Of a DNA stretch of 64,000 nt, positions 10,760-37,292 are shown in pieces. Both the position numbers and the translations under genes were made by a program. Source of the DNA: Amphiscolops sp. MND2022 (taxonomy: Eukaryota); the NCBI GenBank assembly GCA_964187785.1, contig OZ076409.1, positions 10,852,001-10,916,000 of the forward strand, given 5' to 3'. Position 1 is the stretch's first letter. Each line of letters opens with the position of its first letter. The notes beneath the pieces are model-generated. The model saw nothing but the letters and a program-made list of their open reading frames with translations. It was not told the DNA's origin and searched no databases.

Positions 10760-13700
10760 AAATAGCGATAATACATCCGTGATTAAAGGGTTACTTTAAC
10801 TTATGATCCTCTGTCAAGTATGATCTGTGCGAGATAAAGATGTTAACACCCCCACTCGGAATTGACCCGATTTAGAAGTTAGGGTGTTTTCTGCCCATGA
10901 TGTTTTCACGGTGTTCTTTGAATTTCAGTTCACACAGTTTTTATGAAAAATTTCCGCCACCATTTTTGGTGGCAATAACATATATTCATCTCATTTTTCT
11001 GGAATGCATCACGTTGGAAGTGCTGTTGGACATCAATATGTTTCGATCATTTGTGGAAGACAGGGTATGTTGACAAATTTATAGCTCTTTGATTGTCTTC
11101 TCCGAGATAAGTTTGTTTATGGATAATGTAGATCAGCTAATAGTTGTCGAAGAAATAACACTTATTGTGCTGCAGCTGCCAGTATTTGATATTCTGTTTA
11201 ACAACTCGAGAGTGCACCAATTTGTTGCTTCCATACTTGCCATGATATAGAACTACTGTGCTAACTATACTTGAAATAGAACCCCGTGCTTGAATTGCGA
11301 TCATTTTTATCGCCACTCCAGTCCACGTCACTTTCTCCCAACAAAATAAGGTTACTTTGTTTGCAAAAGGTTATTTTCAGGTTCGATGACCCACGTAGAT
11401 ATCGCAAGATTCTCTTAACATATGTGCTTGCATATGTGCCTTGGTTGGTTTCTCCGTAAAATTTGATAGTCCATTCACTCGAAACAAGATATCTGGTCGA
11501 GTGTGCTTGCCAAGAAACAACGAAGATCCGAATAGGCTTCGATATGTACTTTCATCTTCAGGATCTTCAGGTTCATTGTCATCAGGAGCTTTCATGAATT
11601 TTTCATTTGGAGAAATAGGGGTTTTCAAGGGATTACAATTACTCATGGCTTGGTTTTCAGTTACTAATATTCTATGTACTGTTCTTGGTCTAGACTTATT
11701 CGTCCTGGCCCCTCCTCTAATCTGATGCCTAAAACTTTAGCTCTCCTATTTCTTTCGTTTTGAAGTTTTCTCTGAATTTTTTTCAGCTGTTGAATTACTC
11801 CGATATTAGAACTAGCAAAGAAAATATCATCAACCCCATTTTTTATGTATATTATTTCACTTCTTCTCCAAGTTTTTCTCTGACATACAAACAGTAATCG
11901 CTTTGTACTTTGTTAGAAAAATTCAGCCACTAAGAATATTTGAGTCTATCGTACAAGTTAATGCTGACTGGTTTCAAACCATAAACTGATTTATTGAGCT
12001 TGCACACTAGTTTCGTGCCATCCGCAGCCTTTTTTATGTTCTGCGGGCTGTTCAATATACACTTATTCATCAGTTTTTGCATGTTAGTATGCTGATTTAA
12101 CATATGATTGCCCTAAATGTATATCGTGTTGCGCTGCTAAAGCTAAAACTAATCCAGGTCTTTTAAGTGGAAGGAACGTTTTGCCGTAGTTTAGACTTTC
12201 TATTTGAGAAACTGTTTTGACAGAAATCGAGCATCATATCTTTTAACTGCTCCATGTTCGTTGCTTTTGATTTTGAAAATCATTTTTTGGGCACAATTAT
12301 CCGACTCCTTGGTGGCTTGACTAGCAACCAAGTTTCGTTTCCTTCCACGCTCTGCTGTTCTTCTATGATGGCTTCAATCCACTTCGCATCTCAAAATGTG
12401 CTTAATCTATTGATTGTACGTCAGTGATTCTGATTTCTCTCTTAGAAAAAAACCAAGAGTGAAATAGTTTCCGAAACGTAAGGGAACATTCACCTCTCCT
12501 TCAGCAATTGCCGCCGTAAAATTACTTGTCGTACATCTCAAATCTTTCAGGGTAACCGAGTTTTGAAAATTGGAAACTGTAATTTGACATGAAACTACAA
12601 TTGGTTCCAGTTTGCTATCAAGGCTTTGATTATTTTCAGTATCTGCAACTTAATCACAAGAAGTACTATCAACAGATAATTTTTCAAGCTCAGTTTCTAC
12701 AGGTGGGTCGTCTTTGACTGCTTCCAAACTAGTCTCATGACCTACTGTTATGTCTGGTGGACCCATTCAAAGCCCATTTGTTTCATTCCTCTTGTTTATG
12801 TCAAAAGGATTTTGACGGAGAGATAACAAACTCGAGTCATCGAAATCAACGAAATCAACTTCTTCATCTGTTTTTTATGAGGGACTTCTTTTTGTTGGAG
12901 AATACATGCTTGGCAACGAAAAACTTCCCTGTGCTCAAGTCTTTCTCTACGTACCAAGGACTATGTTCATCGTATGCTAAAAATTTACATTTTGACGCCT
13001 TTTTGTCAAGTTTTTGTCATTACGTTTTGAGTTTTGGAACAGAAACTGTGCATCCAGAAACCTTTAGTTTCTCAATATGCGGTTTCCTTCCATTGAGAGT
13101 TTTTAGAAGAGTTAGTTCACCTCTCTCGATGACTACGAGGTTCCGCAAACAACAAGCTGTTGCAATGGCTCTGAGCCAATAAATTTTGGCAATTTTGATT
13201 CGAGTAGTAAACATGTGGCCATTTTGACTATAGTTCTATGGGCTCTGTCAGGAATACCATTCGGCTCATGGGTTTCAAGCACTGGAAAAATTCAGCCACT
13301 AAGAATATTTGAGTCTATCGTAAAAGTTAATGCTGACTGGTTTCAAACCATAAACTGATTTATTGAGCTTGCACACTAGTTTCGTGCCATCCGCAGCCTT
13401 TTTTATGTTCTGCGGGCTGTTCAATATACACTTATTCATCAGTTTTTGCATGTTAGTATGCTGATTTAACATATGATTGCCCTAAATGTATATCGTGTTG
13501 CGCTGCTAAAGCTAAAACTAATCCAGGTCTTTTAAGTGGAAGGAACGTTTTGCCGTAGTTTAGACTTTCTATTTGAGAAACTGTTTTGACAGAAATCGAG
13601 CATCATATCTTTTAACTGCTCCATGTTCGTTGCTTTTGATTTTGAAAATCATTTTTTGGGCACAATTATCCGACTCCTTGGTGGCTTGACTAGCAACCAA

Positions 13701-16295
13701 GTTTCGTTTCCTTCCACGCTCTGCTGTTCTTCTATGATGGCTTCAATCCACTTCGCATCTCAAAATGTGCTTAATCTATTGATTGTACGTCAGTGATTCT
13801 GATTTCTCTCTTAGAAAAAAACCAAGAGTGAAATAGTTTCCGAAACGTAAGGGAACATTCACCTCTCCTTCAGCAATTGCCGCCGTAAAATTACTTGTCG
13901 TACATCTCAAATCTTTCAGGGTAACCGAGTTTTGAAAATTGGAAACTGTAATTTGACATGAAACTACAATTGGTTCCAGTTTGCTATCAAGGTTTTGATT
14001 ATTTTCAGTATCTGCAACTTAATCACAAGAAGTACTATCAACAGATAATTTTTCAAGCTCAGTTTCTACAGGTGGGTCGTCTTTGACTGCTTCCAAACTA
14101 GTCTCATGACCTACTGTTATGTCTGGTGGACCCATTCAAAGCCCATTTGTTTCATTCCTCTTGTTTATGTCAAAAGGATTTTGACGGAGAGATAACAAAC
14201 TCGAGTCATCGAAATCAACGAAATCAACTTCTTCATCTGTTTTTTATGAGGGACTTCTTTTTGTTGGAGAATACATGCTTGGCAACGAAAAACTTCCCTG
14301 TGCTCAAGTCTTTCACTACGTACCAAGGACTATGTTCATCGTATGCTAAAAATTTACATTTTGACGCCTTTTTGTCAAGTTTTTGTCATTACGTTTTGAG
14401 TTTTGGAACAGAAACTGTGCATCCAGAAACCTTTAGTTTCTCCATATGCGGTTTCCTTCCATTGAGAGTTTTTAGAAGAGTTAGTTCACCTCTCTCGATG
14501 ACTACGAGGTTCCGCAAACAACAAGCTGTTGCAATGGCTCTGAGCCAATAAATTTTGGCAATTTTGATTCGAGTAGTAAACATGTGGCCATTTTGACTAT
14601 AGTTCTATGGGCTCTGTCAGGAATACCATTCGGCTCATGGGTTTCAAGCACTGGAAATTTTGGCCTTATTTGATTTTCAATACAGAAGGGTTTGAAGATT
14701 TCGTTGATGAACACTACCATTATCGGATTTCAAACTTTTTGGACAACCATGTTCAGCTTACCAATTCTTCGAACTTTCCTAAAACTTCACGTTCAAATCT
14801 CAGGAGTTTTACGGCAGTAAATTTACCGTACTCGTTTACAAGCATAAGTACGTAACAATATCCATGCACGCTCGCAAGATTCAGAGGCCCTAAAACTCTA
14901 CAAAAATTTTTTCCATGTTTTTTTTGCATTTGATTTCAGTCTCTTTCGGACGTGGTACTTTGGTTATCTTACATATTGCACTCACTTTGCAGACATTTAT
15001 TTCGCAGGTTCTCAGAGTGGGAGTTCGTCTCTTTCTGACGTCATTCATGTTCAAATGACCTAGACGCTTATGCCAAAGTTCAGAATTTTCAGTTTTGACT
15101 GCGCTACAAAATTTTCGTTTTTCACAAACTCAGCTCGTAGGAAAAAGAATCAACCATTTCTTTCGAGATCAAAGTAATCCTGTGATGTACAGAGTTTCAG
15201 ACTAACAATTTGCTCGTTAAACAAGATTGAGAGCCTTTATTCGTGAAGTTTGTCGACTGATAGTAAATTGAACTTGTATTGAAGTACATACAAAACATAT
15301 TTCAAGAGCAACATAACTTTCTAGTTTTTCGTGTTGTAAGCTTCAATCTCAACACTGCCTACTCCGTTTTACTACTGATTGTCCTCCTTTGAGACTCAGA
15401 ACGACTTCGTGTTTCTCTTGGAATTCGGCAAAAACTTTTTTTACGTAAACAATGTGATCAGTGCTTCCAGATTCTATGGCGAATTTGATATTTACTTCAA
15501 AACGTGTGGCGTATTATGATGCTAAAAACTGATCCACTTAAACTTTTATTTGCATGTTTTTTCACAATGACTTTCCTGCTTGCAAAGACTGCCAAAACCT
15601 ATGTTCTTTTATCTACGTTCTTCGCTTAATGCGCTGCTATGTCAGAGACATATTAAATGAGGACGCCCTAGAGAAAAACGTAGTTGGCATTGCCACATGC
15701 TCTGCAGATTGACAAAGCCCCTGCTCTGTTCCAATACTGTAGTTGAGAAGCCTCTTGCGCAGTTACGTGTAGTCTCAAGAAGGGTTGAAGTACTCCTGGA
15801 AAATGAAATGTTTGTACTGCTCTGGAAGACCATTCAGTATCAGCGCATTGAATATTGCTGGGGTCGGATTTTAACCTGCTTGTTGTGGTCAACTGTTCGA
15901 TTCTTGGGCTCTGTCGAAGAACGACTGGATATCCTCACGTTCTGTCAATTTTAATTGCGCCAGTAGTGCAACTATACTGACAATAAGGCAGCCTCATTGC
16001 TGCGAAATTGATCAATCACAGATTTCCATGTTGCCTGGCCATCGGCCATTCCGTCTGCATTAACACAGTCATGTCGAAATGCCATCAATGTCGTCGAGTC
16101 AGCAGATGTCGTCGATTCAGAGATTGAGCCAAATAACACCAAACACTGTTGTTTCGGCTTGTCGTCTTCGTCTTTTGGCTCTTCAACCTTGACACGATAT
16201 TGCTCTTGATAGTGCGATAAACACCTCCGTGATTAAAAGATTACGTTAACTTATGAGCATTTGTCAAGTATGACCTGTGAGATTGAGCTGTTAAT
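10760..16295 (-). mobile_element. Decayed Ty1/Copia LTR retrotransposon
   Basis: Minus-strand motifs in Copia order: protease-like FAIESGSTDHI (~15452-15483), WHKRLGHLN (~15050-15075), RT TRPDILF (ORF 11377-11646), RNase H SKHIDVQQHF (~11019-11047). Diverged direct repeats at ~10760-10848 and ~16208-16295; PPT GAGTGGGGG adjoins TGTTAACA at 10848. Confidence 0.85.
11916..14657. repeat. Head-to-tail 1369-bp tandem duplication inside the Copia relic
   Basis: 11916-13284 is repeated at 13285-14653 (twin ORFs 12757 and 14126 are offset by 1369); about 4 substitutions seen; GAAA microhomology at the junction. Confidence 0.95.
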
Positions 16296-16645: not shown

Positions 16646-17522
16646 CACCTCTTTTTTCTGTCCCCCACCACCGATTTTTTGCAATTTAATCAAAATATTA
16701 TAACAAAAAGACTTGAATACAAACCAGAAACCTTTATTTTTAAAATTGTTTCCGGGGTGACAGTTTAGAAGCCAGATACAAACATTGTTCACACTCTTTA
16801 TCCTTGTGAATTCACGCAGTCTCAGAAGGAAATACATCAGCTTCTTTTTTGAGTCACAAAAAACACTTGACACGAACATAATTAAAGTCAGTATGCGTGG
16901 TAAACGTTTTGTTCAAACAAAATATCGTTCTAAAAGACGTTAACTTCTTGTTATCGATAAAGAATTCACTTTTATCCAGGCTACTGTAAAATTTTTGAGG
17001 AAATTCACTCTCAAAAATTTTTGTGGTGGGGTAGAAAAAAGCCCAGCTCGCAGATAAAATTGCCAATGTCGGATGGGGCAAGCATAAAAACCCTAGCTTT
17101 TTTCCTAGTTGTTTTGCTAGGCTCTTTTCTGATTTCCCCCACCACCACAATTTTCTGAAAGTAAATTTCCTTAAAAAGTTCAGACTAGCCTATCAAATGT
17201 AAAACCGTCTTTCATAACGGAAGTTAACGTCATTACAATAGTTTTTGGTTTGAACAAAACATTTTCACACTTTTTGACTATATTTATGTTTTCGAATTAA
17301 TTGTTTCTTGTTACTCAAAACAATAAATTATTGATATGTAAATCAAAAATTCATAACTTCAGATGCAAACATTGTGTGAACAAAGTTTTCATCTCAATTC
17401 CATACAGTTACCCTTGAAATGAATTAAATATGAAGGTTTCTGGTTTGTAATCAAGTCTTTTGTGATATTATTTCCACTTATTTTCCAAAAAAAATGGTGG
17501 TGGGGAAAAACAGAAAAGAGAA
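16646..17522. mobile_element. Two adjacent Merlin-like MITE copies (~16646-17044 and 17120-17522) in opposite orientation
   Basis: Same termini and internal sequence as 6052-6458. Confidence 0.65.
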
Positions 17523-18769: not shown

Positions 18770-19050
18770 GGCTGACAGGGTCACAAATTTTCACAACTTT
18801 TCAAACTTTTCAACAATTGAGACTTTTCGAACTTTGTCAGAATCAGTCAGAAGTGTGATCAATGAATACATTAATGAATTTCGTATTTTGTTTATGTTTT
18901 CAATCAACCACCGAAAGTTGTAGTGACGAAATTTCCATTCAAGTTTTTATGCTCACAAAGCAATTGAAGCAACAAAGAAAATGGCCTTGATTCGTTTACC
19001 TAAAAAAGACTGGTACGACCTTTGAACTATTGACCTTTACCAATTCGGAA

Positions 19051-20004
19051 ATGACAGAGTTCCGAAAACGGAGACATAGTGTAGCTACTTGTTTCTCCAG
19101 CCATGAAAGCCACTTAGAAGGGGAAAGATTATACAAAGAGGCAAATCGTAAGAAATTGTCTTACCAGGGCTGTCGCGTCTTCAGGTTATGTTCGCGAGAG
19201 AAAATTGACCTCGATAGATCTGACGCTGCCAAAAAGTTCCGTTTGGCAGCGCAACATTTCATGAATTCTGGCGAATGGGATCGAGCGGGAGAATGCTACG
19301 AGAATTGCGCGAAATTGCAAGAACTCGGACGAGACCTCGAAACAGTTGATGCAGCATCCAACTTCACGAATGCTTCATTGTGCTACAAACAAGACGAGCT
19401 CGGCCGATCACGGCGCGATACAGCTGTGATTGGTGGACGAAGACTGCCGAGAAATAAATCAGCCTCGCTGCCAATGGGAACGGATATCAAGTTACCGAAC
19501 ATCAACGAAGAGAAACTAAAACCAATAAATTCGTCAATGAGCAGGCTGGCTCATCTACAAATGGATTCGAAGCGTTACGAAAGAGCCAGAGAAAATTTCG
19601 AGACAATTGGATGCAATATTGTGAAAAGTGGCAAAAATCTTGAACAGGCCGTAGATTTTCTGTTCAAAGCTTGTATGTGCGAGTTGATGTTTAATCCGCC
19701 GTCGGCGTCCTTGAGAATCCTAGATTATTACAAACTATATCCACCGTGCCAAGAATCCGTACAGTTCAAGTTTTTCTCGAGTCTTCTGGAAGTGGTCCAA
19801 AAAGAGGATCAGATGCAATTCCAGGAACTTTTGAATGACAACAAAAATTTGAGTTTATGGATACAGAAGTTGATGGAGGAATTGTCGAAAGCGCTGGGGT
19901 TTGAGGATACCATAAGAAAGAGTATTAGTCATGAACGCAAACGAAGACTCTCAGAGACGGACCCCCAAGTGAAAAAAGACCCCTTCTATGCCCTGTATAA
20001 CTAG
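19051..20004 (+). CDS. NAPA: Divergent alpha-SNAP (NSF attachment protein)-like protein, intronless
   Basis: Uninterrupted 317-aa ORF. EANRKKL..DAAKKFRLAAQHF..WDRAGECYENCAKL..DAASNFTNASLCYK and YERARENFETIG..FLFKACMCEL match the alpha-SNAP helical pattern. Confidence 0.75.
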   Translation: MTEFRKRRHSVATCFSSHESHLEGERLYKEANRKKLSYQGCRVFRLCSREKIDLDRSDAAKKFRLAAQHFMNSGEWDRAGECYENCAKLQELGRDLETVDAASNFTNASLCYKQDELGRSRRDTAVIGGRRLPRNKSASLPMGTDIKLPNINEEKLKPINSSMSRLAHLQMDSKRYERARENFETIGCNIVKSGKNLEQAVDFLFKACMCELMFNPPSASLRILDYYKLYPPCQESVQFKFFSSLLEVVQKEDQMQFQELLNDNKNLSLWIQKLMEELSKALGFEDTIRKSISHERKRRLSETDPQVKKDPFYALYN

Positions 20005-20092: not shown

Positions 20093-20556
20093 GGCTCTTT
20101 TCTGCCCCCCCACCACCAAAATTTTTGATAGTAAAATTCCTTAAAAACTTCAGACTAGCCCAATTTAAAGCGAAACCTTCTTTCATAACAGGATGTTAAC
20201 GTCTACTAGAATAGTTGTTTGTTTAACCAAAGCATTTTTTACACATTTTGTTTATAATTATGTGTTCGTATTCACGGTTTTTCTTCACCTCTCTTTCAAA
20301 CATGCGTGACCACATAGGAAAAAAGTGTGAACAAAGTTTGTATCTCAATTTTAAAAAGTCACCCTGAGAAAAAATTTTAAAATGAAACTTTCTGGCTTAT
20401 TTTCATGTCTTCTTGTTATCAGATTTTCATTAATTTTCCAAAAAAATTCTGGTGGTGAGAAAATTTTTTCTCAGGGTGACTTTTTAAAATTGAGATACAA
20501 ACTTTGTTCACACTTTTTTCCTATGTGGTCACGCATGTTTGAAAGAGAGGTGAAGA
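20093..20556. repeat. Merlin-like MITE rearranged by a perfect 97-bp inverted duplication (20282-20378 / 20460-20556)
   Basis: The two arms are reverse complements with an 81-bp spacer; the right TIR is truncated. Confidence 0.8.
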
Positions 20557-21564: not shown

Positions 21565-23005
21565 TGTGATAATCCTCCTCGTCGGATTCTTCGTTAAAGA
21601 TAACTGTTGCGTCTAGTGTTGTTTCATTTTGGTGTATAGGCTTAGCGGGATGCCTTAGATCTCTCACTTCTGAGGCTTTGAGGGGGATATCTTCGTTTTC
21701 AGAGTCTATACTTTCGTTATCAGATGCGTTTACTCCCATAGACCTTTTACCCTTGGATCCCGATGGTTGCATGTTTTCTATCTCATTCATCTCAGATCTA
21801 GGATTAGTTGTCATAGATGTGCTTTTATTGGTTTTTATCTCCATCAGAATCGCATCTAATTTGTTCTCCATTTCTTCTCTCATTTTAGTGATTCTATCGT
21901 TGTTTTTCTGTTCAAAAATCTCGGTCCAAGCTTGAATTTCATTACTGACTTGGCTGGGTTCAACTAGTCTGGGTCTCAAATCAGTTTCACCTAAACTTTC
22001 TTGACTTTGTAAATTAACATTAGTTAAAGTTTCATTACCTTGACTTGGAGTTTCTATGCGTACTTCGCTTGTTTCTCTCTCCGGGGACGGAGTTTCTAAC
22101 CTTCTGGACCTTCGATTTCTTCTATTTCCCATCTTGCTCAAGAGGAAAATTGGGTTGAAGTGCAGAAAGAATTTGAATTTATTCGTCAATGTTGTGAAAA
22201 CAATTCGGGTGAAACAAAGAGTTATCAAGGAAACTGCTTTTACAGTGTTTGGGTTTATTGTTACAGAGCAACTGTCTCTGGTACCAGTTATATTTCAACT
22301 GAAGTAAACTGCACTTTTACAAATGAAAAAATCACAAAGCATGACACTCAATTTTTGGGTTGTCATCGATCCAAAAATACTATAAATAGACTTACGTCAG
22401 GGTGACGTAATTCTATTTATAACTTACAAATAGTAATTGCATGACTTCCAATAATCTAACTATGCTAAAGCAACAAGTCCCTGGGAAACCGCTGAATGCC
22501 GCACATACGTCATCCAGTTTTCCGCATAGTGACGTATGATCAAAGCTGATTAAAAGCACCAATAAAACATGTTATAAGTTAGAATCCGCATGGTACCGCA
22601 TATGCGTTACTCGGATTACCGCATAATGACGCATACTCATCGTTACTAAACTCACACGGTAAAGTGTCAATGGCGTTATGTTCACAAAATTAGTTCAGAA
22701 AAGACGTCACGTTATTCTAGCTTCGAAGTTAATGAGTGCATATGTTCATTCATGTCAACAAAATGAAAGCATCAATGTTTAAGGCATTTGTCAAAACGTA
22801 AACATCAAACTATAAGATTAAAGAGTTTGCATGACATTTTCAAGGTATCAACTGAAAATTAAATCAACATAAATAACAAAAGGAAGTTGAGAGTGTTTAA
22901 GAGTTTCAAGTCCTCGAGTTGTTTTAGGGTTCTTTTGGAGATGACTAAGTATTCTCGTTTAGGGTTGTTGCCCAACAGCTCCAGCACAACTGTGGGGTTT
23001 TGACA
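21565..23005 (-). repeat. 3' LTR
   Basis: Matches 35852-37292 with about 5 substitutions. Confidence 0.97.
22381..22421. promoter_or_regulatory. LTR dyad with two opposed TATA boxes and two CRE-like sites (also at 36668-36708)
   Basis: TATAAATAGA-C-TTACGTCA-GGG-TGACGTAA-T-TCTATTTATA is a 41-bp near-perfect palindrome. Confidence 0.6.
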
Positions 23006-23991
23006 GTCCTGCACTTTTAAACGAGAATAGAGCAGCTTCAAAACCATCTATAAAAGCACGGGATCTTACTCCACGGTCCCTTACTGTCTCGGTGTCGTAG
23101 GCGGTTGCTATTAAATATTCGCTCAAAATTTCCAATGCTATTTGATCGTAGCACTTCCCGCACCAATCGCAAAAGCCTGCTACTTTCGGCATCACGGTGG
23201 GGAACAATCTGTGCATCTGTCTTTCACTGGTTGGGATAAGTAGCAAATTGGTACTATGTCCCACATGAAAAGGGAAATTAAATACCTGTTGGTTATTGGC
23301 CACTTGTCCATTCTTCCACTGTTTGGGGGTATCTGTATCATCAATGGGGCGTTGTTGTAGACTACCATATTGTCCACTGAAGTAGGGGCTGTCATTTCTT
23401 GTTGGTTATAGTTACTCGGGTAGACTGTTTGATGATGGTTATTGAAGATATTGATTGTATCATTTGGAAGTGACTTGCATTAGCCACGAAGTTCGGAGGG
23501 TAGGTTGCAGCTGGCCTGTTCACTGGTACGCTCCTTTGAGGATTGTCCCGGGGCGTTGGTAAAATAGCAGCTGTTGGTCTCCCATAGCTGTTTGTCGAGC
23601 CTTCCTCCCTAACTTGAGGTTCCCAAGGTGACATTGGGGAATCTTCTAGTTCAGTGTCAATGAATGAGGTGGATGGGGATTCGTATATATGTTGATCTTC
23701 TTCCATCAAGTCCACTAACTGGCGCTCAATTCTGGTTCCAGAAATGTCGATCACTTCGTCTTCTCTTGATCCTCTTGTTGAAGTAGGAAAAAGGGAAGCG
23801 GTCGCTGCTCCCATAAAGGCGGTCATGACATCAGATCGGGGGCCGCCAGGCCTGAATCGATCTTCTAACTCCGACACGTCTCCAGGATGGACAATAACTT
23901 CATCTCCAGAGTCACTTGAGACGTCAATTATGGCGGGGGACAGAGAAGGTAGCACCAGTTCTTCCTCAAGATTGAATTGTAGATTCTCCAT
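22959..23991 (-). pseudogene. Accessory ORF3 (~344 aa if two -1 shifts are repaired): acidic poly-SIM-like N-terminus, N/Q/P-rich linker, Cys/His C-terminus ending inside the LTR
   Basis: ORFs 23392-23991, 23192-23395 and 22959-23303 each lie in the -1 frame of the previous one; motifs IIDVSSDSGDE, EDEVIDISG, LVDLMEED and CDWCGKC. Confidence 0.6.
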
Positions 23992-24910
23992 TGGTATCGT
24001 GTGATCAGATAGTTTTGAAGAATGAAAATTACGAGCTTTATTGTTTTGGATTATCCCAATTGAGGGTTATTTCAGATGAGCTACTGCTTCTAAGTTTCTA
24101 ATGAGACCTTATGGTAGTCGTCCCATAAATCCCAGTTGTTTCCGATGATTCCCGCGGAAATGCTGAGCGTCATGATTTCTATCTTATCTGATACCCTTAT
24201 ATGGGTTTTAAGGAAATATAGTCGGATATTTCAAAGAGATGAGTTTGATCTGTATCCATCAATGAGGTGTAAACAATTCGATTTCAAGTGTTTTCTCAGT
24301 TTCATCTTGTAATATCACACCTCTTGCTGTTCACTATCACACTGAGTTGATGATTTAAATGATTTATCAACAATTTTCTTCCTATTTAGGAAAGTTAATT
24401 AGGTTTACAGTGAAATAATTATTCATGTTGTTTTGAACAGGGTTAATTCATCCAATATTACATGACTGAGTTGAAAGAAAATAATGAAAATGTTTCAGGA
24501 AAAAGTTTCAAACAGATGTATCAAATATTAAAATATGAGTTCGTCTATCTAATACATTCACACTTTCATCAGTCCTGCACTCAAAAAATGGCACAGGGGA
24601 GTTATATCTAACAATTTTTCAATCATTTTAGATTTCAAGAAAGATTAACATATGACGTTGCCACATAACAAGTGCCATATATCCTGGTATTTTCAGTTTT
24701 CTCATTCGAAGGTAAATTCATGTTTCCGTACATCAAATACTGCTCATTGCCTAACAGTTCACTATTTGCTTAGAATAAGTTTGTTTTAATCACATGTACT
24801 GCACATCTTGCCACGTAGTATTATTTGACTCTGTGTAGTCAAGAATGAATACTATTACGTAATTTCGTAATTGACTGTTTCTTTCTTCACTGTCCGCTGA
24901 TATCTACAAT

Positions 24911-25094
24911 TCCGCATGGTACCGTATATCCAACATCTTGTGATTCCGCATGGTGCCGCATACACGGCGTTCATAATTCCGTATGATGCCGTATGCTCGG
25001 CACTCGTATTTCCGCATAATGCCGCGTAATGTTGTGTCTGGAATCTATGATTCCGCATAATGCCGCATTTTATATATTATAATACTGTATAAAA
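24911..25094 (+). promoter_or_regulatory. Array of five TCCGYATRRTRCCGY motifs followed by TATAAAA; putative promoter of the antisense gene
   Basis: Motifs at 24911, 24945, 24978, 25011 and 25052; TATAAAA at 25088; the same motif clusters in the LTRs and at 28328-28465. Confidence 0.55.
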
Positions 25095-25513
25095 GCCACG
25101 TGCTCTTTTGTTCACTCTCGCTTGTAATGAGAATGACTGGTGAGTCAGTCGTTTACGTCAATTATGTAATCTTTCACTCTAGCAGAAGTGATTGACATTT
25201 AATTGACCAATCAGATTTGAGAACCACTCTATTTCCGTGTACGATATCTGTCACATTTTGCTCTTTTGCCTTTTCTTGTACGCCACGCCTTTTCAATTTC
25301 TTGTGAATTAAACATTCCTTTCAATTCTTCGATCACAGTCTTTTCAGCTTATTCTTGGAAAAAGTATAGTCGTAGTCATAGTCAGTTTCTTTAACAATTT
25401 TCTCTTGAATACTGCACTTCCGAAACTTCTTCTTAACTCTCATTAAAAGTGCTTCCTTATTCTGCATTGGATCATTGCTCATTGTTTTGTATTGTTGTTA
25501 TCCTTCATTCGGG

Positions 25514-28500
25514 ATGGAATCTACTAGTCGGAGGAAATCGCGAAAAGATCAAATTTCAAGACGAGTGCCAGGATCGTGGGGATACAAATCTCCTACAGAG
25601 ACGTCTCCGGGTTGGTTCAACTTTTGTTTTGAGTTTTGATTTGTAGTAGAATTTGTTTCGGTTGAGGGATCATCGTGCAAAGCTGGCCAGGCTTGCAGAA
25701 TGAAGTAACTAATTCACATTAGTCGATTTGTTTAATTTAGTGTGAAAATAATTTTGTCACACATTGATTTTTTGGGGCGGAAGTAGCTTTGTGATTTTTA
25801 ACCGCGTCCGGTTTCAAAGTTAATTCAATGCTACTTCCTGTAATTCTTTTGCCTTCGCTTCCGCTTTAAGCATTTGAACTTGTTTCAGTTGACCTGGGAG
25901 CGACTCAAACTTCACCAGCACGATCACCGACAAAAGTCTATACACCTCTAGAAGCTGTGCCACCAACAACTCAGAATCCTCCCGAAGATTTACCAATCCA
26001 GGAAACTTCCACAGGAAGTAACGAAGGGATTGAACGAGTTCTCGCCACAAGTTTGGATGAATCCGCAGGGTCAGGTCAACTTTCGATCCACGATACTACT
26101 AATGGTTCTTCAGAGATACCCATTGAGGAAATTGAATTGTCCGACAAGAATGTTACTGTGACTGAAGACAACGATCAGACTTTGGCAACCACCACTGAAC
26201 CGAACGTTGAAGAACTGCCACAGGTTACTTTTACCACCAACTCTCCTCGCTTCACTGAATTCATAAACATGGTCCGAGATGCAAATACCTCCAGTCCAAA
26301 ATTGAATAGGCCTGATATTGATCAACCCCATACTTCTTCTAAAGGAAATCCGCCGACTGACCTGGTAGAAGGGGAAAACAGAGAAAAAGACGAAGAGCTG
26401 CCTGAGTCCAATGAAGATATTCCTGATACCTCACATGCCAGAGACAGTGTTGAACCCGAAGAAGAAACAATACAACAAGTTACTGTCACTCGGCAAGAAG
26501 TTTTAGCGCTTTCAAGTGTATTGGATAAGATCCCGAAAACTGCTCTAGTGAGGGGAGATCGTAACATTCCAGAAAACATTACTCTCACTGTTGTTGGGCA
26601 GGCTCAGAACTCACCAGTTCAAGATGTACAAAGTACCAGTCGGGGTGAAACAACAGAACATCCTCCCGATGATTTGCGTCCCCATTCCAGTTCTGAAGAA
26701 CTTCCGTTGGCACGGGGCAAAAGACGAAAACCAAAGTACTCGTTAACTTCAGCCATGTTGAAGAAACATCCTGTCGTCCAATATTTTGCCACTGGACCAC
26801 TCGACAGAAACAAAAACCCATACAAATGGTGGTGTCGAGTTTGCAAAATAGAGCTGTCTCTGATGAGCAGAGGGGTTTTGGAATTATTGTCTCATTACAA
26901 AACTGAAGCTCATTTGACAAAGGAACATAGGATCCGCTTAGAAACTCCTGGGTTACCTCTATTCGACCAAGAAGAAAATGAACTGCGAGGAATAGGACTG
27001 CAAGAAGCGAAACGAAGAGCTAGAGAAGCACATCCAATCGCTCCTCAATTAGATGGGTTCCGTTTATTTGTCGGGCAAGAACGGTTGCCTGAATTCAGTT
27101 CTGTTACCAGCCCGAGTGAGAGTGTTCTGGCTCAAATCTGCATTCTCGAGAATGGATTCCGCCATGGTGGACACATAAATGTCCTGCTCGGACTCTGGGA
27201 GGACATGACAAGATTGTCACCAGGCAGCAGTGCCCAAATCACCACTCACAAATGGAGTCAACACCGCATTTATGTAAGTACTTTTCTATTCCCCTTTTAT
27301 TCTACCCATGTTTTGAGGGTTACAATTCTATCCTTCTGTTTAGGCCATCGTTACATATATTTTCCGCGAACTAATGCATTATTGTGTCGTGACTACTGGG
27401 CAGCTGGAGTTTGTTCTCTATCTTATGAGAGTTCTCTTACCAAAAATTTCCTCTTCCTGAGTTTCTGGTCGGGGAACGTCTATTACCAAGTTTGTCTCGG
27501 GTCTGGGACCCGCGGGTTATTGTTACCCAAAAGACTTCTTTCCTTGCTCTCGTCTTACTTCAGCTTGTCAGAGAACCCACCTTCTTGCCTTAGCCTCGTT
27601 AATTTTGACGAGAGGTTAGCAACTTGCCTTACTCGGTCACTGTCAGGGAAAACTTGCCCAATGGTCGTCAATTGGTTTGGAGTTACTGAGTTAGAAAAAT
27701 GTTTATCCATGCCAACATCCCGGATCCTTGAGCGACACGACTTCAGGACCATATTGGATTTCTTGCTCATGAAACTGAGAACCGCGCTGGACCAAGAGTG
27801 GTTGCAGTCAATACCCGTATTACACAAGGTACACTTTTCCGTTTTACTTTGTCTCAAAATGCACTTTCAACTTCTAGCGTCATGGTACCCCTCTTTTTAG
27901 TGCGTAACACACTTAACATACACTCTAGAGGAGGCCTCATCCATCATAGCCCTGTTATCTGCACACTGGGACAGGGTGTTGGATCACCTGAATCGGGTTT
28001 CCCGATTACCAACCTTCCGGTACCACATGCGTGAGGTAATATTTCGTTTTTGGATTCCTTTTGTAGCCAATTTGTTGATTAACCAATTTGTTGATTAACC
28101 TTTTCGGTTTTTTAGCCCAGTACGTTAGACGAATGTTTCCGGCTCGATACAGCGTACCTGGCCCGGCTTTTCGTCATTCGCTGTGTTTTGGATCACTGTT
28201 AGTATTCGTTTATCACTTGTTTTCACTGTGCTTTTCTATCAGTAGTATGGCTTTTCGTTGTAATTTCTTTGCGCAGCTGTGACTTGCGATTATCATTAGG
28301 AATTGCTTCTTTGAATAACACACCAAAGCTGCGGGATGCCGTATATACGTCACCCTTTTTTCCGCATGATACCGCATATGCGGCGTCCCTGTTTCCGTAT
28401 GATGCCGCATATTTTGGTGAAGGGTAGATCGTAAAACAGCTAAAACCGTAGGATGCCGCATATGCTCTAAGTATATGCCGTACTATACGGCGTAGTGGAG

Positions 28501-29681
28501 TTGGTGGCACCCTAACTAGGTGTGACTCATGTTTTGCTTTTATCGTTTTTGGATGTTTTGCTATTTGTGTTACAGACAACTCGTCATTTTCTGAAGCACC
28601 GACTGGATATGAAGCTGGATTTCGCCTGTTTAACCAGTTTGCTGTATTCGTTTATTCCCAGCTCCAAAGTATACTTCCAGATAGTATCCTTGGCAATGTC
28701 TCCGACTGGGACAGTTATCTGAAGCTCGATTTAACCCAGCCTGGTCTCCCTTTCAAGAGCTGCAATGAATTCGTTCTGAACTCTGATTTTCATGAGTTAG
28801 TAACTTCCAGCAAGCTGCCAAGGCCCAGTAAATTCATCGAACAGTCGTTTGCCTTCTATAAAGCGTTTTGTCGAATACTGTTGCAGCATAAGATTGCGAC
28901 TTCGGATTTGATTAGAGGTTTATCCAGTTTCGATTCTGCCATGATGCTTGATGGTGAAGAGAAACATTATCTGCCTGCGATTGAGATGCTGACGACCTAC
29001 TTCTCCTCCCATGGCTGGATCACAGTTAGTGATAAAACAAAGGCTGTGAGTCAAAATAGGTCTTTGGTTACGAAATTTCGTTCAAGTCAAGTCTGCCGGC
29101 CAGATGATTGGTTTGAATTCCTTTGCTCCTGTTATGAATTACATTGCCGACCAGAGCTACATCGGGTATTTTAGTAATCCTGTCTGTGTTTGCCACCGAA
29201 AGCGAAGATCACTAGTCAATTTGTTGTACCCATGCCGGAATTGGGACCCGACGAAGATGTATTTCATTCATGCATTTCGAGTATCCAGCTGGCCTACAAG
29301 ACTGTCCCAAACGTGTCAAGTCTCTTCCGAGACCCTCGATCGCTCAGCCGTGTGTTTCGTCTTATCGGGCGAGGACGTGATTTATTAGAAGATCGCAAAT
29401 TTTCTGTTTGGAACTTTTTAAAAGGTAGCGGACCAAGTCGAGTCAGATTTCAGACTAAATTAGAAAGTGCATACAAGAGTGCCGTTGTGAGACGAGAAGA
29501 AGATCCTTTCTCTGTCGACCCCGATGTTTCTGTTTTGAGTAAAGTATCCAGCACTACGAGTTCCCCAGATTCTCAGCCAGTTCTTGGGAAGGCTACAGTG
29601 TCTCTATCCCGCTGCGTCGAAGGAGGAAATGATGGTGCCAAGAAAACAAAAGGGTCGAGTGGAAAAGCTAAGAAGAACTAA
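25514..29681 (+). pseudogene. Antisense five-exon gene encoding a BED-zinc-finger / hAT-transposase-derived protein (~1069 aa); disrupted in this copy
   Basis: Exons 25514-25610, 25889-27273, 27344-27828, 27901-28035, 28576-29681; all introns GT-AG. WWCRVCKIEL..ELLSHYKTEAH is BED-like; SLSYESS..FLSFW..CLG..LSLVNFD is RNase-H-like; WFEFL..PELHRVF**SCLCLP resembles the hAT dimerisation domain. Two 1-nt deletions and TAG-TAA at 29172-29177. Confidence 0.7.
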
Positions 29682-29855
29682 AGCAGTCTTGCTTCTGTAG
29701 ACTTTGTTTCTTTTGTTTTCGTCTCACAGGAGACATTTGTTATGATTATATTTCGTTTCGTCTCGCTTTATTATTATTGAGTGTGCAAGAAAAGAGAAAA
29801 ATGCTGGGAGTATAAAACCAGTATGAGATAAAGTTTTGTCTGAGAATTGTTTTCA

Positions 29856-32800
29856 TTAATATCTGTATGTGTCTGAGTAGTTTGGGTTAGGGTTAGGACG
29901 TAAGTTGTATTTATCACCACGGGTGTTTATGGGTTCTTCTTGTGATGGGATATTTTGTGGATTTTCTGGGGTTTTTTGGGTATCATCATCAAGTGAATTA
30001 TTTGCATCTTTTTGGGTTTTTTGGGTACTTTGATCATCTTCAATGATTTGTTGTGGTATTTCATTTTCATGGTTTTCATGCGATTCAGTGGTCTGTTCCA
30101 CTGGGCTCCCCCACTATTTTTTGAAGATCCTGGGGAGGGTGGGCGGTTTTCTTCGGGCATTTGAATTGGAATGTATTCTGTGTCTTCAGTATTTAATGAA
30201 TATTCTGAAGGACCATCGTCAAAAGGATTTGAACCAAAGTTCGTGTTCCATGATTGGGCATATAGGTCATCATTTGTTATAGGCATTTGGTCATCTTTTT
30301 GCCAATCAATTTCTCGAACAAAAATGTCTGCTAGGGGCGCTTGCGGAGTGAATTTCCGTAGGCGAATCCTGTGTAACAGTTGCGTTTTGTTATTCCCGAG
30401 TCTCCGGACGATGTAGTTATTGTTAGGGAGAACTTTTTCTACTTTATATGGCCCGCACCATCTGAATTCTCGGAATGGTATTTTTGTCACTTGAGTATCG
30501 GCTTTTGGGTTAAGAATGTAGCAGTAATCCGTTGTTTCGAGCGGAGCTGCTTTCGCTTTGCGGTCCTAGTAAGCTTTGTATTTGAGATATGATTGCATGA
30601 TGTTCTTTTTGGTTTGATCTTGAAGGATTTTCATGCGTTTTTGAATTTCTTCCGCCACATCTGCTTGCGGTTGGTATCGTGGGTTAGGATTGTATCCAAG
30701 TTTGTAGTCTAGGATATTGTGTGGTATCCTACCATGGAAGACTCGTGAAGGTTCACAACCGAGTGATGCATGGTATGTGGTGTTGTGATTGAGGACTGCC
30801 AAGGGGAGATATTTATGCTAGTTGTTCCTGAATTCGCCTGTTGCGGCTTTTAGGTGCATTTTCACTGATGCATGTGTTCTCTCAAGGAGTCCTATTGTTT
30901 GGGCATGTTTCATTGTTGCGTGTTTCATTTCAATTCCAAGTACTGCCGACACTTCATGAGTTACTTGTGTATCGAATTGAGTGCCTAAATCCGTGATTAT
31001 CGTTGTTGGAAGGTATGTATGTTTGCATAAGATGTCCATGATAACCCTTGATACTGCTGTTGCAGTAATACGAGTTACAGGGTAGGCAAACAAGTATTTT
31101 GAGAAGACATCTATTGCTGTGATGATATGGTCATAGCCTCCACTAGGGGGAAGGTTTGGTAAAATGTCCAATTGCAAAATGTCTTCCGGACCGAGATCCC
31201 ATTCCGGACAATTAAGAAGTTCTGTCCTTAGGAGATCATTGTTTATGCGTTTCGTTTGGATGCAGATTTGGCAATTACTAACCCATTTTTTGATGTACTT
31301 TGCCATACATGGGTAGTAGTATTTTTGTCTTGCTTCTTGAATCATTTTCGTAATTCCTGGATGGTTTGAATTATGACCATGTAAGGCTTGAAGAAATTCG
31401 TCTAGGAGTTGGATTGGTAGGAGGATTTGGTAGTGAGATATAGTTCCAGTGTCGGTATAGTATTTTCGTGTGAGAACTTCCTGTTTAATTTCTATTCGTG
31501 TTATGTTCTGTAAGTAGTGCTGGTATCGATAGTCTGATGCTAGTTCATTCTCGTCAAAAGGGTTTCCTTCGAGTTTTGCTCTGAGGTTTCTTAGGACTAT
31601 GTCGTTATTCTGCTCAAGGCGGATTCTTGCATTGTCCTTAAAGTATCCCGAAGAGCAGGAGATCAGACCTGATGTAGGTTTGTGGAATCGTTGTAGCTCG
31701 GAAACAGCATTTTCTGGATCATTGTGTGTTTCGGTTTGTGCTTGATTTCGAATGTTTTGTTTTTCTTCCCAGAATTGATTTTCGTCAATTTCATCATCTG
31801 GGAGGACATAGATTTGTTCTTCTTCGATGATGCCAGTTGATTGGATGTTCACCTCAATCGCTTTCGTGTGAATGTCGTTGCGGATTGTCAGTTCCAGTTT
31901 TTCTGTTGGGTCGACTTCCGTTCTAGATAAGAAGTCGGCAGCAGTGTTCATTGTTCCAGCTACGTGGGCGATCACGAAGTTGTATTGCAATACATAATCG
32001 CAGGCATTCCAAAGTGCTGGAGGGATCATTTTTGTTTGAAAAAATCGGGTTACAGATCGATTTTCAGTAAACACGATTACTGGGAAGGTACTACCCCACA
32101 TGAGATGTCCGAATTCAACAAATGCAAAATATATTGACAAAAATTCCTTTGCATAAATTGACATTTTCGTCTGTGTAGGGTTGAAAGTTTTTGAACCAAA
32201 AGCTATGGGTGCATATGTTTTGCGTTTTGATTGGAGCTTCTGGTTTGGGTCATCCTCTATCATGATAGCATATCCAGCTGCTGTGAAACTTGCATCGGAC
32301 ATGACTATAAGTTGCTTATTTTTCAGCGGTTGTTTTAGAGCTAACTGGCAAGAATTTTCTAGGAGTTTGTTGAGGTTCGTGAAGTCTTCTACCAAATTTG
32401 TCGGTACATAGAATTTGGAAGTTTCTTTGAGGAGTTTGAAGAACGGTGAGAGCCGTTCCGAAAGTCGTGGTATGTAATTTCGGTAATAGTTTAAAAATCC
32501 GATATACCTCTGCAACGCCTTTTTTGATTTCGGAAAGCGAAGCTTTGAGAGGAAGTCTTTTACTTTGTCGGCTTGAGGGGCAACTCCATCTGGTGTGATT
32601 GTGCGTCCCAGAAAGTCGACCTGTTTCACTCCAAAGTGGCCTTTGGACATGGAGAGTTTTAGTCCTGCATCGCGTATGCATTCGAACACAGTTCTGATAT
32701 TCGTACACAGTTGTTTTGTGTCATTTGCCGCAATGCCAATGTCATCGACATACTGTGCACATTGGTCTGCTTTAATTGCTCTGTCCAGGTACTCTCTCAT

Positions 32801-34740
32801 AAAACTTGAAAAGGCAGAAAGTGATCTGCTGAGGCCCTGGGCAAGGCGACGATAAGCGAATGTTCTACTGGCAAAGTTGAAGGCGAGCATTTGGATGGAT
32901 TGGTAATCCGCCATCTGCAGGCAGTGGTAAGCTTGGGAGCAGTCCAATTTGCAGAAAAGCTTTTTCCCTGCCATATGTTGGGCTGCATCCGATAAGGTGC
33001 TTACTGGGTGGTTGTTGTTGACGTAAGCTTCGGTGATGAGGTTGTTGATTTTTCGTAGGTCAACAAATAGTCTGAGGCGCCCGTTAGGTTTGCGTTGTGC
33101 AAATATTGGGCTTGCATATTTAGAAAAAGGTAGTGTTGTAATGATGCCATACTTATGTAGGAGTGCAAGTTCTACTGTAATGTCATCTTTAAGATTGATA
33201 GGAGTTGGCAAACTTTGGCTGTATGCAGGTCTGTCATCATTTGGCGTTAGTTTTACTTTGAATTCACGGTTTATGCCAATGTCGAAACGGTGTCTGGCAA
33301 AAATATCATGAAATTCAATGAGGATTTCTTCAATTTCTTTCCGTTCGTCATGACTGAGTGTTGTGTCATTCCAGTCGAAGTTTGAAAGGAAAACTTTTCT
33401 GGAATTTTCATCATCTTGTGGGTTTAGTTTTTCAAGTTCTTTGAGTTCTAGGAGTTCTTTGTAGATTCGTTGTTGAATTGGAGTGTATGTTGCTGGGTCA
33501 CCTGGTTCTTCAGGAGTAGGGAACCAGTATGTCTCCTGTTCTGAGTTCGTTTTTGGAACTTTGAGGAGTTCGTTTATGTAGACGTCCGTTGTTTCCTCAT
33601 GTTGTATCATGAAGGACAGTAACGCTGGGTCTACTGGCTGTATATGTTTGATTTGTTCTGGTGTCAGTATCTTGAAATCCGCTAAATGGGTATCAAGGGT
33701 TATTGTATATGGTAACTCGGAGAAATTAATGATTTGGTATCCAATAGCATTATTGTTGACTGTACTGAGTGACGCTGTGATGAAGATGCTATTGTGATTT
33801 TCAAACTGATGTGATGGGGTGACTATTCCAGTTGCGTCATGGTCCATCAGATGGGGCATTCTGCTTGCAATTGCTAGGGTTTCGCCTGGTTGCAAGGTAT
33901 ATGTATTTTCTGCAAACAATGGTGTTGCTTGTCGTATTGATGTTTGGGTGTCGGGTTTAAGCTGCATTCAAAGGTAGGGGAAGGTTAGGATGCCTTGGGT
34001 GACATCAAAGATTGCGTTATTTCTACGGAGAAAACACAATCCAATTAACGGGTTCGGTAAGTTTTTCATAATGATGAAATTTTCCTTCAACATGAAGTCG
34101 GCCACTTCAAATTCAAGTAGAACAGTACCAATCGGGACTTCCAGTTGTCCATTGGGCACCATAATTTGAAAATTTGGTGGGGGACCAGTTTCTTTGATTG
34201 CTTCATTTGCTAGCAACTTGATTTTGTTGAGGTCTTGTTCGGAGATTGCACTTGTAAGGGCTCCGGTATCAATAAGACCATCAAGAGTAAGTTTTTCGAA
34301 GTCCATTGGAATGTAGTACATGTGGCGTTTTCGCTTCAATGTCAAGGAGGTTGAGATTGGTAGATATGACAAATTTCGTTCTTTGTCAAATTGTATGTGT
34401 TCAGAGAGGTCTTCATTCAATAAGGGTTGTTTTTGATCATCACAAGAAGTTTTATTGTGACATGGTTTTTGATGGGAGATTCGTTGTGAATTTCGAAGTT
34501 TGGGTCTGTTTCAGGGTGGGTTGGTTGTTTTGTGAAGTAGTTGTCTGGTGCATCTTGAAAGAGTTCATATAGTTCTTCTGGTGATGTTTCCAGGGTTGAT
34601 TGTTGAGAGTTTTGTGTTGTTGAGTTCGTGTCAAAGGTTGGTGTTTTTGTGGGTTTTGGACTCAGTTGATGCTGCCAGTCACCGGCTGAGTTTGGTTTTT
34701 GTGGTGATTTTGTGTAAAGGCGTGGCGTTTCTAGTTTAAA
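29856..34740 (-). pseudogene. pol: Gypsy pol (protease, dUTPase-like segment, RT, RNase H, integrase)
   Basis: LIDTGA, YVDD, RNase H SDAS, HHCC (HGHNSNHPG..CQIC) and DDE core. Essentially one frame with premature stops at 33968, 30818 and 30566 and -1 shifts near 34450 and 30110. Confidence 0.95.
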
Positions 34741-36419
34741 TCCTTCGACGAGGATTGTTGGTTTCTTTCGATTCTGGGTCTGATTGGTTTTTTAGCTCGC
34801 TTGTATTCTTCTATAACTTTCCTTTGGGGTTCAGTTAGGTTCCATTTTGGTGGTCTATTATCCATATTGGCACCAAAATAGTAATATTCTTCTTCATGTC
34901 CCAGAGTTTTGCAATTGGGACATTTAGGTGCATCCGGATCTTCTTCTAGTTTTCTCCTTTTAGCTAATTTACGGCAGTCAGTCATCATGTGACTAGCATC
35001 TTTGCAGTAACGACATTGGTCATTTTTGAGTGTTTTGTCGGGTACTGTTTTCGGAGTTTGTTTTTTGGTTTTGTCAACTTGTTTTTTGTTAGTTTTTTCA
35101 GTGTTTTGTTCTTTTTTGGTAACGGTCACCTGAGTTTTGACGAGGGCTTCGTCGGCCTCTAGACCATTAAGTTCCATCTCTCTTTCAAGATGTTTAACGA
35201 TTTGGTCATAAGAGCCATTTTCCAGATAGGCTTGGTTGATGGATTTTTTAAGATGCGGTGGCATCTTGGCATAGAGTAGATTCTCTATCATATGGTGTGC
35301 ATTGTCACCGAAGGCTTTTTCCGCGTTTTCTTGCAAATCTTCGAGAAAATCGGGTAGCTTTTGGTTTTCTGGGTCAAATGTTAGTCGATGAAATTTATGT
35401 TTTGCCGAAGCACTTGATTTTGGTTTGACGTACTTTCGGCGGAAAACTTTTAGGATGTCTTCCAGTGTTGTTGTGGGTGTTCTCTGGATGTTTTTGAAGG
35501 TTTTTAACGCCAATCCTCTGAGATGTGCATAAAAGTGGTTGATCTTCATTTCTTCTGTGAGATTTGGCTGCATTTTGAGGGTTGTGTGGAATAAGTCCTC
35601 GAAATATTCGAATTTTTTATTTTTTTCGTTTTTTCCATTGAATGTGAGTGTGTTTTTAGGGTGAAATAGGGATTGTTGTGAGTTTTTATTGGCTAGTTTT
35701 TCTATAGCCTGGGCAATTTGGTTGACCGGGTCAAGTGGTTTTGTTGTGGATGTTGAAGTGTTGCGGTCTGCGTGGGATCCTAAGGTGTCGTTTAGAAGTG
35801 GGGTATTTTGAGAGCTTTGTCTATGGAATGGTTTGTTGGCTCCTGTCACCATGTGATAATCCTCCTCGTCGGATTCCTCGTTAAAGATAACTGTTGCGTC
35901 TAGTGTTGTATCATTTTGGTGTATAGGCTTAGCGGGATGCCTTAGATCTCTCATTTCTGAGGCTTTGAGGGGGATATCTTCGTTTTCAGAGTCTATACTT
36001 TCGTTATCAGATGCGTTTACTCCCATAGACCTTTTACCCTTGGATCCCGATGGTTGCATGTTTTCTATCTCATTCATCTCAGATCTAGGATTAGTTGTCA
36101 TAGATGTGCTTTTATTGGTTTTTATCTCCATCAGAATCGCATCTAATTTGTTCTCCATTTCTTCTCTCATTTTAGTGATTCTATCGTTGTTTTTCTGTTC
36201 AAAAATCTCGGTCCAAGCTTGAATTTCATTACTGACTTGGCTGGGTTCAACTAGTCTGGGTCTCAAATCAGTTTCACCTAAACTTTCTTGACTTTGTAAA
36301 TTAACATTAGTTAAAGTTTCATTACCTTGACTTGGAGTTTCTATGCGTACTTCGCTTGTTTCTCTCTCCGGGGACGGAGTTTCTAACCTTCTGGACCTTC
36401 GATTTCTTCTATTTCCCAT
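34731..36419 (-). CDS. gag: Gypsy gag (562 aa from ATG at 36419)
   Basis: Capsid-like region and zinc knuckle CRYCKDASHMMTDC plus a degenerate second knuckle; ends T-TTA-AAC-TAG. Confidence 0.9.
   Translation of the reverse strand: MGNRRNRRSRRLETPSPERETSEVRIETPSQGNETLTNVNLQSQESLGETDLRPRLVEPSQVSNEIQAWTEIFEQKNNDRITKMREEMENKLDAILMEIKTNKSTSMTTNPRSEMNEIENMQPSGSKGKRSMGVNASDNESIDSENEDIPLKASEMRDLRHPAKPIHQNDTTLDATVIFNEESDEEDYHMVTGANKPFHRQSSQNTPLLNDTLGSHADRNTSTSTTKPLDPVNQIAQAIEKLANKNSQQSLFHPKNTLTFNGKNEKNKKFEYFEDLFHTTLKMQPNLTEEMKINHFYAHLRGLALKTFKNIQRTPTTTLEDILKVFRRKYVKPKSSASAKHKFHRLTFDPENQKLPDFLEDLQENAEKAFGDNAHHMIENLLYAKMPPHLKKSINQAYLENGSYDQIVKHLEREMELNGLEADEALVKTQVTVTKKEQNTEKTNKKQVDKTKKQTPKTVPDKTLKNDQCRYCKDASHMMTDCRKLAKRRKLEEDPDAPKCPNCKTLGHEEEYYYFGANMDNRPPKWNLTEPQRKVIEEYKRAKKPIRPRIERNQQSSSKDLN
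35834..35851 (-). other. Primer-binding site
   Basis: TGGTGACAGGAGCC.. directly follows the 5' LTR end; priming tRNA not identified (close to tRNA-Leu-type PBS). Confidence 0.7.
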
Positions 36420-37292
36420 CTTGCTCAAGAGGAAAATTGGGTTGAAGTGCAGAAAGAATTTGAATTTATTCGTCAATGTTGTGAAAACAATTCGGGTGAA
36501 ACAAAGAGTTATCAAGGAAACTGCTTTTACAGTGTTTGGGTTTATTGTTACAGAGCAACTGTCTCTGGTACCAGTTATATTTCAACTGAAGTAAACTGCA
36601 CTTTTACAAATGAAAAAATCACAAAGCATGACACTCAATTTTTGGGTTGTCATCGATCCAAAAATACTATAAATAGACTTACGTCAGGGTGACGTAATTC
36701 TATTTATAACTTACAAATAGTAATTGCATGACTTCCAATAATCTAACTATGCTAAAGCAACAAGTCCCTGGGAAACCGCTGAATGCCGCACATACGTCAT
36801 CCAGTTTTCCGCATAGTGACGTATGATCAAAGCTGATTAAAAGCACCAATAAAACATGTTATAAGTTAGAATCCGCATGGTACCGCATATGCGTTACTCG
36901 GATTACCGCATAATGACGCATACTCATCGTTACTAAACTCACACGGTAAAGTGTCAATGGCGTTATGTTCACAAAATTAGTTCAGAAAAGACGTCACGTT
37001 ATTCTAGCTTCGAAGTTAATGAGTGCATATGTTCATTCATGTCAACAAAATGAAAGCATCAATGTTTAAGGCATTTGTCAAAACGTAAACATCAAACTAT
37101 ACGATTAAAGAGTTTGCATGACATTTTCAAGGTATCAACTGAAAATTAAATCAACATAAATAACAAAAGGAAGTTGAGAGTGTTTAAGAGTTTCAAGTCC
37201 TCGAGTTGTTTTAGGGTTCTTTTGGAGATGACTAAGTATTCTCGTTTAGGGTTGTTGCCCAACAGCTCCAGCACAACTGTGGGGTTGTGACA
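35852..37292 (-). repeat. 5' LTR
   Basis: Direct repeat of 21565-23005, adjacent to the PBS. Confidence 0.97.

Follow-up and report, generated by a model that had tools for sequence, protein, structure and literature searches.

The 64,000-nucleotide stretch of DNA analysed here (the window) carries a Ty3/gypsy LTR retrotransposon on the minus strand at 21565..37292. The element is 15,728 bp long, has TG...CA ends and is flanked by a 5-bp target duplication, TATGG. The LTRs, direct repeats of 1441 bp at 35852..37292 (5′ LTR) and 21565..23005 (3′ LTR), show 5 differences between the two copies, and a PBS-like TGG is found at 35851, directly after the 5′ LTR. The coding region (29927..36419, minus strand) has the Ty3/gypsy order of gag, protease, RT, RNase H and integrase; in Pfam searches the last three scored above cut-off, and gag and protease below it. 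The copy is recently inserted, though defective, since stops interrupt pol. Because the gag ATG at 36419 is located inside the 5′ LTR, the 3′ LTR contains a duplicate of about 190 gag codons (36419-35852), and the gag reading frame runs through the PBS.

Two extra genes, pointing apart, are located in the interval from pol to the 3′ LTR. The sense ORF (23991-22959, minus strand) is broken into three frames; it is acidic and has a Cys-rich tail, and no Pfam family was found for it. It contains three motifs which we take to be SIM-like, and a role as a SUMO-directed counter-silencing factor is possible. Divergent from it is an antisense gene at 25514..29681 on the plus strand, with about 1100 codons in six predicted exons (25514-25610, 25889-27273, 27344-27828, 27901-28035, 28116-28197 and 28576-29681), GT-AG introns and fitting phases, and a hAT-transposase-like product. 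In the window copy this gene is broken as well, exon 3 carrying a frameshift and exon 6 two stops.

The antisense protein belongs to a large family. Relatives were recovered with exon 2 (n=71) and exon 6 (n=75) at 45-96% identity, all of them unnamed, and a profile search gave 396 clusters at 50% identity; these relatives are protein records with no accompanying DNA. The position at which exon 2 ends is shared by 64 of the 73 relatives scored. Across the family identity is 0.78 in a zinc finger compared with 0.19 in the N-terminal part, which is acidic in all 65 relatives measured. The finger, C-x2-C-x16-H-x5-H at 26833..26913 (plus strand), appears to be of the BED class, is intact in the window copy and is preceded by the acidic region and by a basic cluster, the latter present in 64/71 relatives. 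Its full ligand pattern was present in 112/210 matched proteins, many of the others being fragments. An aromatic residue is found before C-x2-C, and two further zinc ligands are at the spacing of Hermes, whose ligands C51, C54 and H71 define the same C-x2-C-x16-H arrangement (PMC10368747). At the position of the Hermes base reader N67, placed by spacing alone, Glu is found in 105/112. The finger loop reads LSLMSRG in 59/112, and KT[KR]G types occur in more distant relatives. Seven distant relatives (P0247, P0258, P0265, P0273, P0288, P0308 and P0248; 23-30% identity, on short contigs) differ in finger loop and helix, and a different motif would be predicted for them.

The original prediction had assigned the motif described below to the element's own BED protein. 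The BED class of the finger is indicated through the distant relative P0283, the only one of the 14 relatives scanned to pass the Pfam zf-BED cut-off, which aligns to the window region with an E of 7e-20; the window's own finger gave no BED profile or Pfam match. In structure comparison of the finger, RNA-binding matrin/U1 fingers scored Z 5.9, above ZBED2 at Z 3.8.

We infer that the antisense gene is hAT-derived from two lines of evidence, each weak to moderate, which agree. Atlas look-alikes of the region from the finger to exon 3 of relative P0037 fall in DUF4371, FAM200-ZBED5, Dimer_Tnp_hAT and ZNF862-like clusters (0.87-0.93). With the exon-6 model of relative P0110, Hermes was the best of 48,161 chains at Z 5.1, a weak match with an rmsd of 11.6 that is tied with unrelated helical proteins. 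The Atlas search with exon 6 returned no usable match, Foldseek nothing at E 0.001 and nothing on a second look, and profile searches of solved structures with the antisense protein nothing; no Pfam family was found for the gene. The hAT catalytic glutamate is placed in the motif after a conserved LP, and this position sets the alignment register used here. Over residues 213-243 of A2, which follow this LP, 28 full-length rows contain no column with 80% D/E. The catalytic glutamate thus appears to be missing across the antisense-protein family.

The motif CCGYAT-N4-CCGYAT, allowing at most one mismatch, was matched 15 times in the window as against 0.20 expected. Shuffled sequence never gave more than 2 matches, and 0/100 shuffles reached 15. 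All 15 matches fall within the Ty3/gypsy element and are divided among the LTR U3, the region of the putative internal promoter and one intron. In the 5′ LTR the cluster spans 36772..36921 (motifs at 36775, 36808, 36872 and 36905), and its assignment to U3 is deduced from a TATA match at 36708 and an AATAAA at 36546. The same cluster in the 3′ LTR spans 22485..22634 (22488, 22521, 22585, 22618). The internal cluster, at 24908..25068, consists of five direct pairs (24911, 24945, 24978, 25011, 25052), and the intron cluster, at 28325..28491, of motifs at 28328, 28361, 28394 and 28445 with an additional palindromic site at 28475-28491. Two of the motifs are degenerate relative to WCCGYATRRTRCCGYAT, that at 22488 with 3 mismatches and that at 28328 with 4. 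Start-to-start spacings are 33, 64 and 33 bp in U3, 34, 33, 33 and 41 in the internal cluster and 33, 33 and 51 in the intron. The motif coordinates predicted originally were all correct, the copies described at +14287 being those of the second LTR. The predicted places in U3 and upstream of the antisense gene also stand; the third cluster, which had been put in intron 4, is in intron 5 of the six-exon model.

The absence of the motif outside the element, which had been claimed from inspection, was borne out within the window. Profiles built from two clusters ranked the held-out sites above all outside sites, the lone exception being 28328 (score 10.8, best outside site 12.2). Single half-sites outside the element numbered 19 in 48,272 bp, with two loose pairs and no larger cluster. 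Half-sites are non-coding in 19/21 cases, where 75% of the DNA is coding. All three clusters are likewise in non-coding DNA, which makes up 24% of the element (p about 0.014), and after masking of the modules described below no similarity was found among the three cluster regions. A motif-pair scan of metagenomes gave 33 loci; all were simple 9-10-bp repeats or low-complexity sequence with no similarity to the element, and they were discarded. The same scan of viral sequences gave 0 loci, and a related locus sought in metagenome, viral and genome contigs was not found. An RNA-structure reading was also rejected (z -2.3 to +0.1 over five folds, no Rfam match).

The bipartite description captures a real repeat. 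As a pair of half-sites around a free spacer it is incomplete, the true unit being larger. The monomer is 10 bp, RRTRMCGYAT, with the profile trained on the second half-site only. Two direct monomers are followed by an inverted one, and with 3 bp added the module is 33 bp; the inverted monomer abuts the second half-site and generates a 20-bp imperfect palindrome. Inverted monomers are located at 36792 and 36889 in the 5′ U3 cluster and at 28345 and 28378 in the intron; in the internal cluster the third monomer is clear after 24945 and 24978 and degenerate after 24911. The spacers had been described as non-conserved. This does not hold for the six motifs of exact 33-bp period, where spacer identity is 0.58 versus 0.26-0.27 in two controls (0/20,000 each), because each of these spacers contains the third, inverted monomer. 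The other seven spacers are at background level (0.31). The third monomer is present in 6/6 motifs that have the next motif at 33 bp, and those six spacers are the top-scoring six of 13 for the inverted monomer (1 of 1716 choices). The third monomer was spotted before testing, and these p-values are post hoc; the grouping by 33-bp spacing is independent of the score. Helical phasing of the motifs is only suggestive, with p 0.015 at 10.5 bp from four distinct spacings and no significance at 10.0-10.2 bp. Separately, an inverted repeat in the LTRs (36668-36708 and 22381-22421) carries a pair of opposed TATAAATAG boxes along with two TGACGTAA half-sites, of which the inner TGACGTAA half-site is a weak monomer by profile score.

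A second copy of the intron cluster was found in P0324, an ORF that by chance spans intron 5 in another copy and is 71% identical; 65 of its 82 residues were aligned, the remainder being beyond the second gap or the match end. Five of 30 motif-encoded residues differ, three within the R/Y positions of the consensus and two breaking it, compared with 13/35 changed outside the motif (Fisher p 0.0065). Neutral simulations gave 0.06, 0.009 and 0.002 without CpG bias and 0.006 or less with it, the lowest below 0.001. The test concerns one copy, found via shared words, with 9/13 of the outside changes falling in the tail and just 4/15 residues changed between motifs. Within these bounds the comparison suggests that the motif is conserved in this second copy. 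Ten short ORFs of the window were sought in the protein collection, and 0/10 were present.

These observations bear on the possibility that the clusters are what is left of a minisatellite of 33-bp period, propagated through slippage and template switching without selection by a protein. Such an origin agrees with a TRF array at 24943-25025 (33-bp period, 2.5 copies, 76% matches) and with spacers that are alike across clusters, as expected from common descent. Conservation is however patterned: monomer cores are kept, R/Y positions are free, and the spacers off the 33-bp period are not alike. Identity of the 33-bp-period spacers is as high between clusters (0.57) as within them (0.62), P0324 has changed mostly at permitted positions, and two of the clusters are at TATA boxes. 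A tandem origin would also be compatible with function, as it is for VANC targets (PMC5735166). We regard an array free of protein selection as quite improbable.

A passenger origin of the gene and its clusters was also considered, in which they would form a nested hAT transposon with subterminal repeats, carried within the retrotransposon. A hAT-like protein beside repeats in a subterminal-repeat layout is what such an insertion would leave. Around the antisense gene, however, none of 57 TIR-like pairs had an 8-bp target duplication (at most 2 mismatches), the clusters are in both U3s and in an intron and not at two ends, and the catalytic glutamate seems to be absent throughout the family. 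This origin is most improbable.

Back-to-back TATA matches are located at 25069..25095, one on each strand (25076, minus; 25088, plus), and are the only two in 23950-25520. The pair constitutes a putative divergent internal promoter. The plus-strand match is 20 bp after the last motif of the internal cluster (chance 0.006), and TATA 36708 on the minus strand is 67 bp from the U3 cluster (chance 0.01), which occupies 67-215 bp upstream of it. The earlier statement that two clusters are just upstream of TATA boxes is thus confirmed, for 25088 (+) and 36708 (-). The intron cluster at 28325..28491 has no TATA match. Matches which we take to be an E-box, an AP-1 site, a CRE half-site and CCAAT are present at 25097-25215, which is upstream of the minus-strand TATA and on its far side from the cluster, hinting that the two divergent genes may be under separate control.

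From these features we propose, with somewhat better than even confidence, that the modules are bound by a dead transposase which the element itself encodes and which activates the internal promoter and the LTR. The BED-class finger of the antisense protein, which is probably an inactive hAT transposase, would bind the 33-bp modules, and an oligomer would dock several fingers on each module as in Hermes, since the layout of the module matches the repeat layout of Hermes and Tol2. The bound protein would activate and not repress, because the sites are 20-215 bp upstream of TATA and the N-terminus is acidic. Activation may occur at the internal promoter first and at the LTR second, an order suggested because the internal sites fit the consensus best: mismatches are 0, 0, 0, 1 and 0 in the internal cluster and 3, 1, 0 and 1 in U3, against a consensus itself drawn from these sites. 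The intron cluster might serve as an enhancer or a second docking site, and defective copies, among them the one in the window, would obtain the protein in trans from intact ones. A counterpoint to binding by the element's own protein is that the Hermes BED finger reads about 4 bases, as against a monomer of 10.

The same protein could instead bind the modules and repress, loop or tether, thereby limiting copy number, blocking the sense gene or bridging the LTRs. The internal cluster starts 8 bp downstream of the minus-strand TATA at 25076, an operator-like position for the sense ORF, the cluster is present in both LTRs, and the Hermes oligomer is known to pair DNA ends (PMC10368747). For the antisense gene and gag-pol, on the other hand, the sites are upstream of TATA and not over it, and the uniformly acidic N-terminus of the relatives fits repression poorly; the transposase-derived regulators described in the available text of 10.64898/2026.08.24.746577 activate. 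Repression or looping is accordingly judged unlikely.

LTRs ordinarily rely on host factors. A host transcription factor could bind the monomer, with the element having gathered sites for a host programme and the antisense protein having another role. GCM was the one host factor tested. Some monomers contain TGACG, the AP-1, CRE-half, E-box and CCAAT matches are nearby, and the B monomer on its own forms an odd palindrome of 9 bp. The sequence ATRCGG matches 6/7 bases of the Gcm motif ATGCGGG (PMC4701085). As a candidate the GCM site was rejected, however: the G at position 7 of the core is found in 0/26 half-sites, so the fit is poor, and this seventh base is among the positions mutated to make unbound sites (PMC4701085). 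The fixed direct-direct-inverted module suits a multimer, and one cluster is inside the element's own DNA-binding-protein gene, both of which argue against a host factor. Binding by a host factor is therefore considered fairly unlikely.

For the proposed binding by a dead transposase, the hAT transposons offer a precedent. In Hermes three BED domains are placed on three subterminal repeats, cooperatively on a quasi-palindrome, and in Tol2 a third repeat comes 10 bp after a palindrome (PMC10368747). A palindrome with a third repeat 10 bp away is thus common to hAT subterminal repeats (Hermes, Tol2, Ac) and to the module described here. The hAT repeats differ in being 4 bp long, located beside TIRs and used for transposition (PMC10368747), whereas here 10-bp monomers are found at putative promoters, with no TIRs and with the glutamate apparently absent.

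The arrangement of gene and sites resembles that of foamy viruses. Tas (Bel-1) is an element-encoded DNA-binding regulator whose gene is placed between pol/env and the 3′ LTR and has an internal promoter to itself; it amplifies itself from this promoter, which has the higher-affinity sites, and then opens U3 (PMC7390438). The layout here matches, with targets in the internal region and in U3 and the better sites internal, the promoters being putative. Tas is sense-strand and unrelated in sequence, whereas the antisense gene here is spliced and transposase-like; the two targets of Tas share little sequence (PMC7390438), and here one module is common to both putative promoters.

Dense family-specific clusters of motifs in non-coding DNA, including introns of the regulator and partly tandem, are described for VANC of VANDAL (PMC5735166) and for TnpA of Spm and the AtMu1 transposase (10.64898/2026.08.24.746577), TnpA being itself transposase-derived. 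Clustering of this type, with one cluster in an intron of the presumed regulator, is found in the window element, and the likeness is one of layout only. VANC and TnpA belong to plant DNA transposons, regulate DNA transposons and remove DNA methylation; here a hAT-like gene resides in a retrotransposon, and the motifs occur in both orientations, unlike those systems. A methylation-erasing role for the motif system has little support, as CpG depletion is slight.

Retand (TRP28) and Grande (gene23) each have a conserved antisense gene in the interval from pol to the 3′ LTR, as here; these genes have their own promoter, are predicted to act in the nucleus or bind DNA, and come with repeats in the region (PMC11963269, PMC7264820). 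For these genes the available text of the two reports proposes no target motif and gives no similarity to other transposons, whereas the gene studied here is hAT-like, has six exons and has a candidate motif shared with U3. For years antisense genes have been recognised in plant gypsy elements, with neither function nor origin assigned to them (PMC7264820, PMC11963269). The antisense gypsy gene in the window pairs a recognisable DNA-binding domain with a sharply defined candidate target. A PMD domain is shared by gypsy elements and MULE transposons (PMC9289625), and in the available part of a review of giant transposons (PMC6431247) the terms BED, hAT and antisense are absent. An LTR element with a hAT-derived regulator was not found in searches of open-access literature.

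More tentatively, and as a doubtful extension of the proposal for this element, a radiation of animal LTR retrotransposons may have domesticated a catalytically dead hAT transposase and made it a sequence-specific activator for their private use. Both the finger and the repeat code would then have passed from a DNA transposon to retroviral-type promoters, and loop and motif would co-change from lineage to lineage. If true, a retrotransposon would have taken its master regulator from another transposon class, the transposase-to-transcription-factor route would extend from hosts and DNA transposons to retroelements, and a Tas-like two-promoter switch would exist outside retroviruses. The many diverged subfamilies would then allow the BED recognition code to be read across a natural series.

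The remainder of the window contains several unrelated features. A second, decayed retroelement-like fragment with an RNase H match and no motif cluster is located at 38288-44034, and within it a 172-bp array of six copies lies between 290-bp direct repeats. A 1369-bp tandem duplication at 11916-14657 (99.7% identity) is either recent or an assembly artefact. An uninterrupted SNAP/TPR ORF at 18991-20004 may represent either a retrocopy or one exon. Inverted repeats of fold-back or MITE-like type are present at 20282-20556, 16650-17521, 51651-51889 and 52632-53337, one of them with 13-bp subterminal arrays.
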